From the NCBI RefSeq assembly GCF_024700885.2, contig NZ_CP117016.1: DNA of 64,000 bases. One strand, given 5' to 3'. Of the stretch, positions 5,379-13,456 are shown piece after piece. Origin of the DNA: Escherichia coli (GTDB taxonomy: Bacteria > Pseudomonadota > Gammaproteobacteria > Enterobacterales > Enterobacteriaceae). Each line of letters opens with the position of its first letter. The first letter of the stretch is position 1. The notes beneath the pieces are model-generated. The model searched no databases and had not been told where the DNA came from. It was given only the letters and a program-made list of their open reading frames with translations. The position numbers were made by a program, and so were the translations under genes.

Positions 5379-5735
5379 GTCAATTTCCCTTCCTTATTAG
5401 CCGCTTACGGAATGTTCTTAAAACATTCACTTTTGCTTATGTTTTCGCTGATCTCCCGAGCGGTTTCAAAATTGTGATCTATATTTAACAAAGTAATGAC
5501 ATTTCTGGCGGCGTTAAATACCGTTCAATGCGTAGATATCAGTATCTAAAGCCGTCGATTGTCATTCTACCGATATTAATAACTGATTCAGAGGCTGTAA
5601 TGGTCGTTATTCATCACCCATCGCTTTTGTGATGGCGACCATTGACTTCTGTAGAGGGTGAAGTCTCTCCCTATTCAGCAATGCAACCTCGTGTTGCCAG
5701 GCTCAAATTACGAGCAAACATACAGGAATAAATCG

Positions 5736-6341
5736 ATGACTATGACAAGACTGAAGATTTCGAAAACTCTGCTGGCTGTAATGTTGACCTCTGCCGTCGC
5801 GACCGGCTCTGCCTACGCGGAAAACAACGCACAGACTACCAATGAAAGCGCAGGGCAAAAAGTCGATAGCTCTATGAATAAAGTCGGTAATTTCATGGAT
5901 GACAGCGCCATCACCGCGAAAGTGAAGGCGGCGCTGGTGGATCATGACAACATCAAGAGCACCGATATCTCTGTCAAAACCGATCAAAAAGTCGTGACCC
6001 TGAGCGGTTTCGTTGAAAGCCAGGCTCAGGCCGAAGAGGCAGTGAAAGTGGCGAAAGGCGTTGAAGGGGTGACCTCTGTCAGCGACAAACTGCACGTTCG
6101 CGACGCTAAAGAAGGCTCGGTGAAGGGCTACGCGGGTGACACCGCCACCACCAGTGAAATCAAAGCCAAACTGCTGGCGGACGATATCGTCCCTTCCCGT
6201 CATGTGAAAGTTGAAACCACCGACGGCGTGGTTCAGCTCTCCGGTACCGTCGATTCCCAGGCACAGAGCGACCGTGCTGAAAGTATCGCCAAAGCGGTAG
6301 ATGGTGTGAAAAGCGTTAAAAATGATCTCAAAACTAAGTAA
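5736..6341 (+). CDS. osmY: Osmotically inducible periplasmic protein OsmY
   Basis: 201-aa product starting [28 protein letters not shown]; two BON domains. Confidence 0.9.
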
Positions 6342-6467
6342 TTCGTCGTAATTCGTCCTCCCGAACTTTGTCGGGAGGCGCGATGTGCACCACACTAAAA
6401 ATATCGCATTGAGTGATTTTCACGCTCATATCAAGCGGTGACATTAACTATGGTAAAGGAGACGCTT

Positions 6468-6629
6468 ATGTTTCGTTGGGGCATCATATTTCTGGTTATC
6501 GCGTTAATCGCCGCCGCACTTGGGTTTGGTGGTCTGGCCGGTACCGCTGCAGGCGCAGCTAAAATTGTCTTTGTCGTCGGGATTATTCTGTTCCTGGTGA
6601 GTTTGTTCATGGGCCGAAAACGACCCTAG
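6468..6629 (+). CDS. ytjA: Small membrane protein YtjA (DUF1328)
   Basis: 53-aa product [29 protein letters not shown]...; terminator hairpin 6660-6686 follows. Confidence 0.7.
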
Positions 6630-6747
6630 ATTTCAGACCATTAAGAAAATTTTATCCAAAGCCAGTCCAGCGGACTGGCTTTTGCGGTTTTAGCGAATAA
6701 TAAATTGCGTTACTTTGTCATTCTTTCACAACAAAAACAGGAAGGCA

Positions 6748-8600: not shown

Positions 8601-8640
8601 GCAGGACAAGGCGTTTACGCCACATCCGGCATGTCACAAA
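8601..8640. repeat. REP-like palindromic element
   Basis: Reverse complement reads gccggatgtggcgtaaacgccttgtcctgcc, which is REP-consensus-like. Confidence 0.4.
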
Positions 8641-9497
8641 TACAGCGCCGGAAATATCAACCGGCTCACCCCGCGCTCCCGTAACGCATCAGCCAACTGC
8701 TCAACATCTTCCGGTGTGGCGCTCGGCCAGCTTTGCGCTTCGCCATACACGCCGTGGGCATGAAACGCGTTCAGGCGTACCGGAACATCGCCAAGTCCCT
8801 TGATAAACGCCGCCAGTTCTTCGATGTGTTGCAAATAATCCACCTGGCCAGGGATTACCAGCAAACGCAGTTCCGCCAGCTTGCCGCGCTCTGCCAGCAA
8901 ATAGATGCTGCGCTTAATCTGCTGATTATCGCGTCCGGTTAACTGTTGATGACATTCGCTACCCCACGCTTTGAGATCGAGCATCGCGCCGTCGCACACC
9001 GGGAGCAATTTTTCCCAGCCGGTTTCGCTCAACATACCGTTACTGTCCACCAGACAGGTGAGATGGCACAGTTGCGGATCATTTTTGATAGCAGTAAACA
9101 GCGCCACCACAAACGGTAGCTGGGTCGTGGCTTCGCCGCCGCTTACCGTTATCCCTTCGATAAACAGCACTGCTTTGCGGATATGGCTAAGCACCTCATC
9201 CACGCTCATGGACTGCGCCATTGGCGTGGCATGTTGCGGACACATCTTCAGGCAGGTATCACATTGCTCGCAGACCACAGCGTTCCACACCACTTTGCCG
9301 TCAACAATCTGCAACGCCTGATGCGGACACTGTGGCACGCACTCTCCACAGTCATTGCAGCGTCCCATCGTCCACGGATTGTGACAATTTTTGCAACGCA
9401 GATTGCAGCCCTGCAAAAACAGAGCCAGACGACTGCCTGGCCCGTCAACGCAGGAGAAGGGGATAATCTTACTGACTAAAGCGCATCTGCTGTTCAT
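8634..9497 (-). CDS. yjjW: Glycyl-radical enzyme activating protein YjjW
   Basis: 287-aa radical-SAM product with C-x3-C-x2-C and ferredoxin-like cysteine clusters. Confidence 0.85.
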
Positions 9498-11019
9498 GGC
9501 TTATCACGCGCGGCTGGCGTTCCAGAATACGAGTGTTACGTGCGGCTTCTTCTCCCAGCCAGGTGGTGTTGGTACGTGAGCCTTCGGCACGATATTTTTC
9601 CAGATCCGACAAACGCACCATATAACCAGTAACGCGAACCAGGTCGTTACCGCTGATATTGGCGGTAAATTCACGCATTCCGGCTTTAAAGGCACCGAGG
9701 CAAAGCTGTACCAGCGCCTGCGGATTACGTTTGATGGTTTCGTCGAGCGTCAGAATGTCGCTGATGCCGGAATAATAATAAGCATGATGCGGGGCGACGG
9801 TTTGCAGATGGGTGATCGGATCTGGCTCATCACCATACGGCAAACGTGCGCCCGGCGTGGTGCCGACATCGGAACTTATCCCCGACTGTGCGTGTAACAT
9901 GGCGCGTTTTTGCCAGCCATATTTCACGGGGGTATTGGCGACAAACTCCGCCAGTTGCGCGCTGATGCGATAACCCACTTCATTTGCGGCGGCCTCTTTA
10001 CCGTAGCGCGCGGCAATCCCTTCGTTTTCACACAGCAAGTTAACCGCTTCCGCCAGCCCATACATGCCAAACATTGGCACAAAACGTTCAGGGTTAATCA
10101 GCCCTTCTTTCACCAGGAAGCTATTCTCAAAGAAGTGTGATTGTTGATAGAGGAATTCACACCGCGCATCGATGATGGCGATCTGCTGCTGGCAGTAGTG
10201 CGGTAGAGTGCGCGTAAAGAAGTCATCCAGCGATTCGCTGCGCTCGGCAATGGCTTTCAGGTTAAGGCGTACCAGCGTGCTGCCACCACCCGCCAGCGGC
10301 AGTGAGTTGTAACAGCTCACAATCCCGTAGCCCCCTTTTGTGAAAATTTTATCATGCACCGGAGCGTTGGCGATGTGCGGTTTGCTACATTCACAGATGT
10401 TCTTCGCCACTTCCAGCAGTAGGTCATCAGGGGTGATTTCAGGATCGTAGATAAAGGTCAGGTTCGGTGAAACCTGCTTCAACTCTGCGTCTGCACGTAA
10501 GATCGCGCGGGTAATGGGCGAATCAGACGGGCCGATATTGGCGTGCATAAAGGCGTCTGGCAGGGTTCTGTCGAGGTAACGCCAGAAACGTTTTATTCGA
10601 ATATCGATCTCGTCTTGTGTTAGAATTCTAACATACGGTTGCAACAACGCATCCAGTTGCCCCAGGTAGACCGGCATCGATGTGACCGACGGTACGTGGT
10701 GGTAAAGAATGGTCAGCAGAGAGAGTGCATCATCAAGATCTTTCGCGCCTTCCAGCTCCAGCCATTCGGAACCGTTCGCCAGAAAACGGGCGTAATCGGG
10801 TAAGACATAGCGCGGTTTGTACGGCGCATGACCTTCAAACATATCGCAGATTACACCCTCATCCAGCGCGCGGCGGGCTTCGGCAGGAAGCTGCGGATAA
10901 GGCAGATTGTTTTCTGCTTCCAGTGCCAGAAAATGGCGCTTCTGCTCCGGGCTAAGCACTGGGCTGGTGACAATTTGCAGGCAACGTTGTTGCAGTGCAT
11001 TTTCATGAGAAGTGGGCAT
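9469..11019 (-). CDS. yjjI: Glycyl-radical enzyme family protein YjjI
   Basis: 516-aa ORF immediately upstream of and overlapping yjjW; conserved K-12 neighbour. Confidence 0.85.
10339..10354. promoter_or_regulatory. Candidate DeoR operator O_E
   Basis: TGTGAAAATTTTATCA, imperfect palindrome 279 bp upstream of O1; lies inside yjjI coding sequence. Confidence 0.45.
10618..10633. promoter_or_regulatory. DeoR operator O1 (deoP1)
   Basis: Perfect palindrome TGTTAGAATTCTAACA, 599 bp upstream of O2; inside yjjI coding sequence. Confidence 0.65.
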
Positions 11020-11216
11020 CTTCTTTTCCTTTTATGCCGAAGGTGATGCGCCATTGTAAGAAGTTTCGTGATGTTCACTTTGATCCTGATGCGTTTGCCA
11101 CCACTGACGCATTCATTTGAAAGTGAATTATTTGAACCAGATCTCATTACAGTGATGCAAACTTGTAAGTAGATTTCCTTAATTGTGATGTATATCGAAG
11201 TGTGTTGCGGAGTAGA

Positions 11217-11232
11217 TGTTAGAATACTAACA
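11217..11232. promoter_or_regulatory. DeoR operator O2 (deoP2), with adjacent CRP/CytR-like TGTGA site
   Basis: Perfect palindrome TGTTAGAATACTAACA 45 bp upstream of the deoC start; aattgtgatg motif just upstream. Confidence 0.65.
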
Positions 11233-11276
11233 AACTCGCAAGGTGAATTTTATTGGCGACAAGCCAGGAGAATGAA

Positions 11277-12056
11277 ATGACTGATCTGAAAGCAAGCAGC
11301 CTGCGTGCACTGAAATTGATGGACCTGACCACCCTGAATGACGACGACACCGACGAGAAAGTGATCGCCCTGTGTCATCAGGCCAAAACTCCGGTCGGCA
11401 ATACCGCCGCTATCTGTATCTATCCTCGCTTTATCCCGATTGCTCGCAAAACGATGAAAGAGCAGGGTACCCCGGAAATCCGTATTGCTACGGTAACCAA
11501 CTTCCCACACGGTAACGACGACATCGAAATCGCGCTGGCAGAAACCCGTGCGGCAATCGCCTACGGTGCCGATGAAGTTGACGTGGTGTTCCCGTACCGC
11601 GCGCTGATGGCGGGTAACGAGCAGGTTGGTTTTGACCTGGTGAAAGCCTGTAAAGAGGCTTGCGCTGCGGCTAACGTACTGCTGAAAGTGATCATCGAAA
11701 CCGGCGAACTGAAAGACGAAGCGCTGATCCGTAAAGCGTCTGAAATCTCCATCAAAGCGGGTGCTGACTTCATCAAAACCTCTACCGGTAAAGTGGCAGT
11801 GAACGCGACGCCGGAAAGCGCGCGCATCATGATGGAAGTGATCCGCGACATGGGAGTAGAAAAAACCGTTGGTTTCAAACCGGCAGGCGGCGTGCGTACT
11901 GCGGAAGATGCGCAGAAATATCTCGCCATCGCCGATGAACTGTTCGGCGCTGACTGGGCCGATGCGCGTCACTACCGCTTTGGCGCTTCCAGCCTGCTGG
12001 CAAGCCTGCTGAAGGCTCTGGGCCACGGCGACGGTAAGAGCGCCAGCAGCTACTAA
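11277..12056 (+). CDS. deoC: Deoxyribose-phosphate aldolase
   Basis: 259-aa product starting [29 protein letters not shown]. Confidence 0.9.
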
Positions 12057-12133
12057 GGCTTGATTTGCCGGATGACGCAGCGATGCTCATCCGGTTCCCC
12101 GATTACCTCGTCTCTTTTCCACGGGAGGTTACC

Positions 12134-13456
12134 TTGTTTCTCGCACAAGAAATTATTCGTAAAAAACGTGATGGTCATGCGCTGAGCGATGAAGAAATTC
12201 GTTTCTTTATCAACGGCATTCGCGACAACACTATCTCCGAAGGGCAGATTGCCGCCCTCGCGATGACCATTTTCTTCCACGATATGACAATGCCTGAGCG
12301 TGTCTCGCTGACCATGGCGATGCGAGATTCAGGAACCGTTCTCGACTGGAAAAGCCTGCATCTGAATGGCCCGATTGTTGATAAACACTCCACCGGTGGC
12401 GTCGGCGATGTGACTTCGCTGATGTTGGGGCCGATGGTCGCAGCCTGCGGCGGCTATATTCCGATGATCTCCGGTCGCGGCCTCGGTCATACTGGCGGTA
12501 CGCTCGACAAACTGGAATCCATCCCTGGCTTCGACATTTTCCCGGATGACAACCGTTTCCGCGAAATTATTAAAGACGTCGGCGTGGCGATTATCGGTCA
12601 GACCAGTTCACTGGCTCCGGCTGATAAACGTTTCTACGCGACCCGTGATATTACCGCAACCGTGGACTCCATCCCGCTGATCACTGCCTCGATCCTGGCG
12701 AAGAAACTGGCGGAAGGTCTGGATGCGCTGGTGATGGACGTGAAAGTGGGTAGCGGTGCATTTATGCCGACCTACGAACTCTCTGAAGCCCTTGCCGAAG
12801 CGATTGTTGGCGTGGCTAACGGCGCTGGCGTGCGTACCACCGCGCTGCTCACCGATATGAATCAGGTACTGGCCTCCAGTGCAGGTAACGCGGTTGAAGT
12901 TCGTGAAGCGGTGCAGTTCCTGACGGGTGAGTATCGTAACCCGCGTCTGTTTGATGTCACGATGGCGCTGTGCGTAGAGATGCTTATCTCCGGCAAACTG
13001 GCGAAAGATGACGCCGAAGCGCGCGCGAAATTGCAGGCGGTGCTGGACAACGGTAAAGCGGCAGAAGTCTTTGGTCGTATGGTAGCGGCACAAAAAGGCC
13101 CAACCGACTTCGTTGAGAACTACGCGAAGTATCTGCCGACAGCGATGCTGACGAAAGCAGTCTATGCTGATACCGAAGGTTTTGTCAGTGAAATGGATAC
13201 CCGTGCGCTGGGGATGGCAGTGGTTGCAATGGGCGGCGGACGCCGTCAGGCATCTGACACCATCGATTACAGCGTCGGCTTTACTGATATGGCGCGTTTG
13301 GGCGACCAGGTAGACGGTCAGCGTCCACTGGCGGTTATCCACGCGAAAGACGAAAACAGCTGGCAGGAAGCGGCGAAAGCGGTGAAAGCGGCAATTAAAC
13401 TTGCCGATAAAGCACCGGAAAGCACACCAACTGTCTATCGCCGTATCAGCGAATAA
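12134..13456 (+). CDS. deoA: Thymidine phosphorylase
   Basis: 440-aa product from TTG start, [21 protein letters not shown]... Confidence 0.9.

Follow-up and report, generated by a model that had tools for sequence, protein, structure and literature searches.

The region described here lies in a window of 64,000 nt, the whole stretch of Escherichia coli DNA that was analyzed. Its genes are arranged in the order yjjU-yjjV, yjjW-yjjI (minus strand) and deoC-deoA-deoB-deoD (plus strand), with deoA encoding thymidine phosphorylase (NCBIfam), and the divergent yjjI starts only 257 bp from deoC. The genes of immediate relevance are the following.

8634–9497, minus strand: yjjW, activase of YjjI (NCBIfam)
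9469–11019, minus strand: yjjI, 516-aa glycyl radical enzyme of the YjjI family (TIGR04040, 786 bits, and RefSeq annotation), housing the sites O1 and OE
11277–12056, plus strand: deoC, first gene of deoCABD and the regulated target (TIGR00126, 292 bits, and annotation)

The 1.2-kb stretch around the sites shows 100% identity to strain 1190 and occurs in 5423 out of 5426 complete E. coli genomes, where the annotation is always yjjI followed by deoC. A search of positions 9000–12500 against Rfam yielded no match. When YjjI-bearing species were scanned, each represented by a single genome, deoC was seen to adjoin yjjI divergently in 74 out of 80 species loci; among the other six, two contigs end before deoC, and four Proteus loci carry yjjI without a nearby deoC.

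Operators and promoters of the deo control region

Three 16-bp sites, for which a strand is not applicable, have been identified upstream of deoC.

10339–10354: OE, TGTGAAAATTTTATCA, covering yjjI codons 222–227, CAT GAT AAA ATT TTC ACA (HDKIFT)
10618–10633: O1, TGTTAGAATTCTAACA, covering yjjI codons 129–134, TAT GTT AGA ATT CTA ACA (YVRILT)
11217–11232: O2, TGTTAGAATACTAACA, intergenic

Counted from start to start, O1 and O2 are 599 bp apart, and OE lies 279 bp upstream of O1. O1 and OE are situated 387–402 nt and 666–681 nt into the yjjI reading frame, respectively, on the opposite strand. These are exactly the positions (10339, 10618, and 11217), the spacing and the placement of the upstream two sites within yjjI given by the original prediction, which had further described both 10618 and 11217 as perfect palindromes. 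The latter holds for O1, where all eight pairs are self-complementary, and fails for O2, where seven out of eight are (positions 7 and 10 being unpaired), and this is the only error of that prediction; in OE six pairs out of eight are self-complementary, leaving O1 the sole perfect palindrome. Compared to the DeoR palindrome TGTTAGAA.TTCTAACA, O1 has no mismatches, O2 has one, and OE has four, while OE and O1 match at 12 out of 16 positions.

Sites with at most one mismatch did not occur in 100 Markov simulations of the window, and sites with at most three mismatches occurred at a mean of 0.23–0.33 per simulated window. A match at the level of OE (four mismatches) is unremarkable alone, as the window has six of them versus approximately 2.4 expected. 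Hence what makes OE convincing is not the match score but its placement at exactly 279 bp and the fact that it hardly varies in 75 species.

The sites agree well with the characterized deoP1–deoP2 region. DeoR palindromes are given as TGTTAGAA-TACTAACA or TGTTAGAA-TTCTAACA in PMC5326754, and O1 and O2 are letter-for-letter equal to the two published palindromes quoted there. According to two further papers, deoP1 and deoP2 are separated by 599 bp and both locked by one DeoR loop (PMC3334521), and DeoR binds O1 and O2 at tandem promoters spaced about 600 bp, OE being some 300 bp further upstream, with loops between all DeoR sites seen by electron microscopy (PMC8053113). DeoR looping between O1 and O2 has been measured in vivo (PMC8053113). 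The published palindromes, the 599-bp and the approximately 300-bp distances thus bear out the predicted control of deo by DeoR looping among three operators with this spacing, and the comparison with the characterized region, which had been suggested as a check, gives agreement in both sequence and spacing. We conclude, with a probability of about 95%, that these sites represent the E. coli deoCABD operators OE, O1, and O2, two of which (O1 and OE) are at the same time dual coding in yjjI.

Other regulatory elements of the region are listed below.

10582–10599, plus strand: constrained block upstream of O1, CCAGAAACGTTTTATTCG, yjjI codons 141–146, including the rare CGA141 and ATA142
10621–10626, plus strand: putative –10 element of deoP1, TAGAAT within O1, with TG at 10618–10619 making up the extended –10 element TGnTAGAAT; predicted start at about 10633
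11053–11094, minus strand: predicted yjjI promoter, with FNR-like box TTGATCCTGATGCG at 11081–11094 and –10 element TACAAT from 11058 to 11053
11131–11146, plus strand: CRP site 2 of deoP2, TTTGAACCAGATCTCA, CRP-like, 53 bp upstream of site 1, partly conserved
11184–11199, plus strand: CRP site 1 of deoP2, TGTGATGTATATCGAA, identical to the CRP ChIP-seq motif of ETEC and conserved in the intergenic alignment
11220–11225, plus strand: putative –10 element of deoP2, TAGAAT within O2, preceded by TGn; predicted start at about 11232

The extended –10 sequence TGnTAGAAT is invariant across species except for operator position 6 (73 out of 75 species for O1 and 59 out of 75 for O2). An overlap of the DeoR operator with the –10 element was reportedly described by Valentin-Hansen in 1986. 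A generic sigma-70 consensus scan called neither deoP1 nor deoP2, but such a scan tells little about promoters that combine an extended –10 element with a poor –35 element. A minus-strand promoter at the O1 palindrome was rejected, with no conserved upstream element on that side. Judging from its location, from –52 to –35 relative to the predicted start, the block at 10582–10599 is probably the –35/UP region of deoP1; the ratio of observed to expected synonymous differences there is 0.32, the fifth lowest window of yjjI.

If the –10 element of deoP2 is at 11220–11225, the centers of the CRP sites (11191.5 and 11138.5) would fall at –40.5 and –93.5, the arrangement known for deoP2. The sequence TGTGATGTATATCGAA is the motif under the yjjI/deoC CRP ChIP-seq peak in ETEC (PMC4287617). 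CRP site 2, with a CytR region between the two CRP sites, is assigned according to the tandem-CRP/CytR architecture of deoP2 (PMC3454398).

In the part of the spacer closer to yjjI, TTTGATCC and ATTGTA form conserved islands. The FNR-like box, with TTGAT at 11081–11085, is centered at 11087.5, that is, 41.5 bp from the predicted yjjI start at about 11046. A class II FNR promoter is predicted here, consistent with the FNR ChIP peak and the FNR-dependent activation reported for yjjI (PMC3688515). The predicted FNR-dependent promoter and the first approximately 400 nt of yjjI lie within the O1–O2 loop, and deoP1 faces them head-on.

Conservation of the operators and constraint on yjjI codons

All three sites are kept in position in Escherichia, Salmonella, Citrobacter, Enterobacter, Kosakonia, Hafnia, Edwardsiella, and an Enterobacillus-like contig; positional conservation of OE, O1, and O2 extends over 74 species loci and this one contig. 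At the Enterobacillus-like locus YjjI is only 66% identical, and the three operators are all retained, with spacing of 279 and 612 bp. Absence of the palindromes from other enterobacterial deo regions had been named as the observation that would speak against the operators; we find the sites conserved there. The 279-bp spacing is trivially conserved, because it spans an indel-free coding stretch. The O1–O2 distance varies between species, with large changes in steps of approximately 11 bp (helical-phase R = 0.51 at 11 bp, which is suggestive only), and this may hint at selection on loop geometry.

Sequence conservation was assessed in a codon alignment of 75 sequences, comprising the window and the 74 loci having yjjI next to deoC. 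OE is identical in 63 out of 75 species, with 13 out of 16 positions invariant, and O1 is identical in 53, the others differing at one or two positions; in the deo orientation, O1 of Hafnia and Edwardsiella reads TGTTAGAATTCCAACA or TGTTAAAATTCCAACA. In O2, positions 1–4, 7–9, 12, and 14–16 are invariant and positions 5, 6, 10, 11, and 13 vary, the variation in the left half TGTTAGAAT being confined to positions 5 and 6. The least conserved of the three is thus O2, the non-coding operator, and therefore a part of the intragenic invariance of O1 and OE reflects an added protein constraint. Within E. coli, polymorphisms lie beside the operators and spare them; those of divergent strains at 10614, 10615, 10635, and 10639 directly flank an intact O1. 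Searches with 30-mers in 5423 E. coli genomes do not separate changes in the operators from changes in the flanks; in the two most divergent genomes inspected, only the flanks are affected.

Synonymous constraint in yjjI was estimated by a synplot-style comparison of observed and expected synonymous differences, calculated per species pair and per amino acid in windows of six codons (n = 511). The lowest ratio of all, 0.014, is that of the OE window, and the second lowest, 0.050, is that of O1, compared to the median of 1.04 for yjjI windows; permutation of the codon columns gives P ≤ 1e-4 for the operator windows. The two operator runs account for 13 out of the 23 most constrained yjjI codons. 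The same pattern is seen in third-position conservation, which is highest in the six-codon windows of O1 (0.993) and OE (0.976), compared to a yjjI mean of 0.65. The constraint stops at the operator edges, with the codons just outside using three to five alternatives. Another constrained patch, at 10117–10134, was considered as a fourth DeoR site and rejected, its best register matching at just 8 out of 16 positions.

Moreover, the codon choice is close to the optimum for the operators. Out of 3456 synonymous codings of YVRILT, the one used at O1 is the only one giving a perfect operator, the Hafnia coding of YVGILT is the unique best of 2304, and of the 192 codings of HDKIFT, the one used at OE ranks in the top two for its match to the operator. 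Rare codons are employed at O1, AGA being one of two among the 33 arginine codons of yjjI, and CTA, one of three among its 57 leucine codons. The claim that the operators constrain yjjI codons is strongly supported and was in fact understated: the operators are the two most constrained windows of the gene, and the amino acids are fixed as well.

As O1 coincides with a putative promoter element, its conservation need not be due to DeoR in full, and the O1 constraint may come partly from the –10 element. A stronger version, in which O1 is kept mainly as a promoter (a symmetric, bidirectional extended –10 element, also producing an internal yjjI/yjjW transcript), with DeoR secondary, seems improbable to us. 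It would account for the occurrence of TGnTAGAAT on either strand of the perfect palindrome, and for the left half, containing the deoP1 –10 element, showing less variation than the right one, in O1 as well as in O2. However, the right half TTCTAACA, which has no deoP1 –10 element, is also nearly invariant; to the right of O1, at the place of a minus-strand –35 element, we observe no synonymous constraint, while the left side is constrained; and OE is equally frozen, yet has no promoter features.

The identity of OE itself could be questioned, so that only O1 and O2 would be true operators and OE would be a CRP site or a chance match. This we regard as very unlikely, although the four mismatches to the consensus are reached as often as noted above and the sequence alone cannot name the protein: the CRP core TGTGA-N6-TCACA is matched at 8 out of 10 positions by TGTGA-N6-TATCA of OE, and a CRP ChIP-seq peak of ETEC lies inside yjjI (PMC4287617). 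That peak, however, is approximately 544 bp upstream of the CRP-1 peak, which places it at about 10647, close to O1, with OE some 300 bp away. OE is the most constrained window of yjjI and among the two best DeoR matches allowed by its peptide; where O1 and O2 occur, OE is found with them, and where both are missing, it is missing too. [quoted passage not shown]

Operator sites and the YjjI protein

YjjI homologues lacking the operators were collected from Proteus, Providencia, Moellerella, a Chromobacterium-like contig, a further contig (L085), and relatives down to 33% identity. At the O1 position they share YVG, the next residue being variable (K, E, A, S, D, N, or Q), and the OE segment is also variable (QDAVFG, QQQAFD, HAGAFD, and others). 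The four Proteus loci and the Chromobacterium-like locus, which have no adjacent deoC, have no operator-like DNA at O1 or OE either, the respective residues being YVG[ENSK]LT and QDAVFG. In L085 deoC is adjacent across a 404-bp spacer, yet the residues are YVGALS and QQQAFD, and its deo control region contains no sequence that comes within four mismatches of the operator. The operator-bearing lineages, in turn, have [R/K/G]-I at O1 and D-[K/N]-I-F-T at OE. As these residues differ or vary in YjjI proteins without operators, the operators have fixed amino acids as well as codons; therefore, both operators sit in tolerant, variable segments of YjjI, and have fixed residues there.

Two of the four departures of OE from the consensus lie within the codon of F226, kept across Enterobacterales, and conservation of F226 plausibly explains why OE cannot improve; the explanation is weaker for D223, which is less widely conserved.

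These observations leave hardly any room for the weakest alternative, by which the conservation is imposed by yjjI itself (slow translation at AGA and CTA, mRNA structure, or essential residues) and the likeness to operators is incidental: rare codons do cluster at O1 (AGA131, CTA133) and upstream of it on the deo strand (ATA142, CGA141), and other synonymously constrained patches, such as 10117–10134, lack an operator match, but the freezing of nucleotides covers precisely the 16-bp operators and ends at their edges, the actual coding maximizes the operator match out of thousands, the residues vary in homologues without operators and hence are not essential, and binding of DeoR to these sites has been published.

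More distant YjjI–YjjW pairs (58–46% identity, including Ferrimonas) have unrelated neighborhoods. An ancient yjjI–deo linkage, or a deep functional coupling of the two, is thus unsupported. Since the distant pairs lie in unrelated contexts, the adjacency to deo, and hence the operators, are most simply explained as a later acquisition within Enterobacterales, the polarity of this change being inferred.

Proposed mechanism and comparison with known systems

Repression of deo by DeoR is lifted by deoxyribose-5-phosphate. With DeoR binding, looping, the inducer, and the action of CRP and CytR at deoP2 taken from the literature, the following scheme can be proposed. O1 and O2 would each hold the –10 element (TGnTAGAAT) of one of the tandem promoters deoP1 and deoP2, and DeoR would occlude both. 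Multimeric DeoR would bind two or three operators together, looping out the 279-bp and 599-bp intervals, and the loop would block initiation at deoP1 and deoP2 until released by the inducer, with CRP and CytR adding control of deoP2 at sites just upstream of O2. Because the divergent yjjI starts so close to deoC, deoP1 with O1, as well as OE, fall inside its reading frame, and since they do so on the other strand, the 16-bp stretches are read in two codes simultaneously. Under selection for DeoR binding, joined at O1 by selection for promoter function, the synonymous positions would have become frozen and the rare AGA and CTA codons forced, and the same selection would have fixed [R/K/G]-I and D-K-I-F-T in YjjI segments that are variable in relatives without operators.

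One could further speculate from the arrangement of the sequence elements that the overlap is regulatory for yjjI as well, with DeoR looping and/or antisense transcription from deoP1 coupling the expression of YjjI and YjjW, an orphan glycyl radical enzyme pair, to deoxynucleoside availability; we consider such coupling doubtful.

The deo/DeoR looping system, known since 1986–89, is a textbook example of action at a distance in prokaryotes, and its confirmation adds nothing new on deo regulation; similarly, the location of O1 and OE inside yjjI follows from genome annotation. The literature searched contained no paper treating deoR and yjjI together, and the quantified footprint of the dual code is a small addition, not a discovery. 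Still, it illustrates, cleanly and in numbers, how in nature a transcription-factor code overrides the genetic code, over some 75 species and in a 516-codon gene, where operators have imposed five or six residues on an enzyme unrelated to the regulated operon. It has a practical side, as recoding, codon-optimizing, or deleting yjjI would silently break deo regulation, and is relevant to genome-wide scans that take synonymous constraint as a sign of embedded regulatory elements.

The closest known system is the deoCABD region of E. coli K-12 (Valentin-Hansen 1986; Dandanell 1987; Amouyal 1989), with the same locus, the same operator sequences, and the same 599-bp spacing; the third site is at a distance of 279 bp here versus the cited ~300 bp, and the yjjI/deoC ChIP peak covers the same CRP site. 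The system is the same one, found in another strain of E. coli, and there are no functional differences. The classical deo papers are older than the annotation of yjjI, and the dual-coding aspect is the sole addition to them. The nupG and tsx promoters, located outside the window, have the same DeoR repressor and the same palindrome family (PMC5326754).

An auxiliary operator of a looping repressor within an open reading frame, hundreds of base pairs off, is likewise found in the lac (O2 inside lacZ) and gal (OI inside galE) systems. In both of them the site serves protein coding and repressor binding simultaneously. Internal operators are also present in galS and deoR (PMC3334521). However, the lac and gal operators reside within a gene of the regulated operon itself, on the sense strand, whereas in the deo region two operators and the whole deoP1 promoter are placed antisense inside an unrelated, divergent, and FNR-activated gene, yjjI.

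Synonymously constrained blocks in yjjI

Two blocks of low synonymous divergence fall outside the operators, with positions given in the window:

10582-10599, plus-strand reading CCAGAAACGTTTTATTCG: synonymously constrained block, yjjI codons 141-146, 20-36 bp upstream of the DeoR operator O1
10117-10134, plus-strand reading GAAGCTATTCTCAAAGAA: yjjI codons 296-301 (FFENSF), fourth-ranked synonymous constraint in yjjI

In the first of these, the observed/expected ratio of synonymous differences is 0.32 across 75 species. The block contains the palindrome AAACGTTT, and its codons include the rare CGA and ATA. It is probably the –35/UP region of deoP1, the deo promoter at O1, or it could alternatively be a site for another factor. 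The second block has a ratio of 0.29, and only 8 of 16 positions match when it is compared with the DeoR operator. The third-ranked constraint (observed/expected 0.28) is at the end of the gene, in codons 508-513, and is expected, because the start and the ribosome-binding site of the activase gene yjjW overlap there; the overlap of yjjI and yjjW is 29 nt (9469-9497).

Operator spacing, distribution and gene neighbourhoods

Among loci L002-L083, the distance between O1 and O2 (10618-11217 in the window) falls into classes of 567-568, 589-592, 596-604 (mode 601), 612 and 626 bp. Four of these are the main classes, with modes at 568, 590, 601 and 612 bp, and the steps between the modes are all multiples of 11 bp. 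Such steps hint that the helical phase of the loop is conserved; this evidence is weak, as the main class itself spans nearly half a turn. Within E. coli, the yjjI–deoC region is absent altogether from 3 of 5426 complete genomes, and in the genome collection it is also matched in three places on plasmid-labelled records.

In the enterobacterial-like lineage L085 (Logan SRR31913104; 2596-3001 and yjjI), yjjI has 70% identity and is divergent from the adjoining deoC-deoA-deoB, with a spacer of 404 bp. Its deo control region, taken as the stretch between nt 720 of yjjI and the start of deoC, has no DeoR-like operator with at most 4 mismatches, and only a five-mismatch O2-like sequence, TGTTGAAATAGTCACA, is found 196 bp upstream of deoC. 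In both L085 and the Enterobacillus-like locus L083, a nupC-type nucleoside transporter gene, convergent with yjjW, and a TatD-family gene come after yjjW (5410-6700), and yjjI-yjjW therefore has nucleoside-related genes on both sides in these two loci. No nucleoside-related flanks are seen in the more distant YjjI loci L087-L089.

Candidate FNR and CRP elements within the deo control region

In ETEC, CRP ChIP-seq places a peak within the yjjI gene, at 544 bp upstream from the CRP peak at deoP2 (PMC4287617). At this distance the peak adjoins O1 (window about 10647). The motif assigned to it, TGTGACCGACGGTACG (10682-10697), is not conserved, with two SNPs in strain EC32. CRP dependence is not known for deoP1. 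One possible explanation for the peak is a shadow produced by cross-linking of the DeoR loop.

From its sequence, a class II FNR-type promoter of yjjI is predicted at 11046-11094, comprising

box centre 11087.5: conserved FNR half-site TTTGATCC
11058 to 11053, minus strand: conserved –10 element TACAAT

The FNR box geometry is 41.5 bp, and the predicted promoter faces deoP1 and sits within the O1–O2 loop formed by DeoR. In published FNR ChIP-seq, yjjI, with no known start site, is listed as FNR-activated (PMC3688515).
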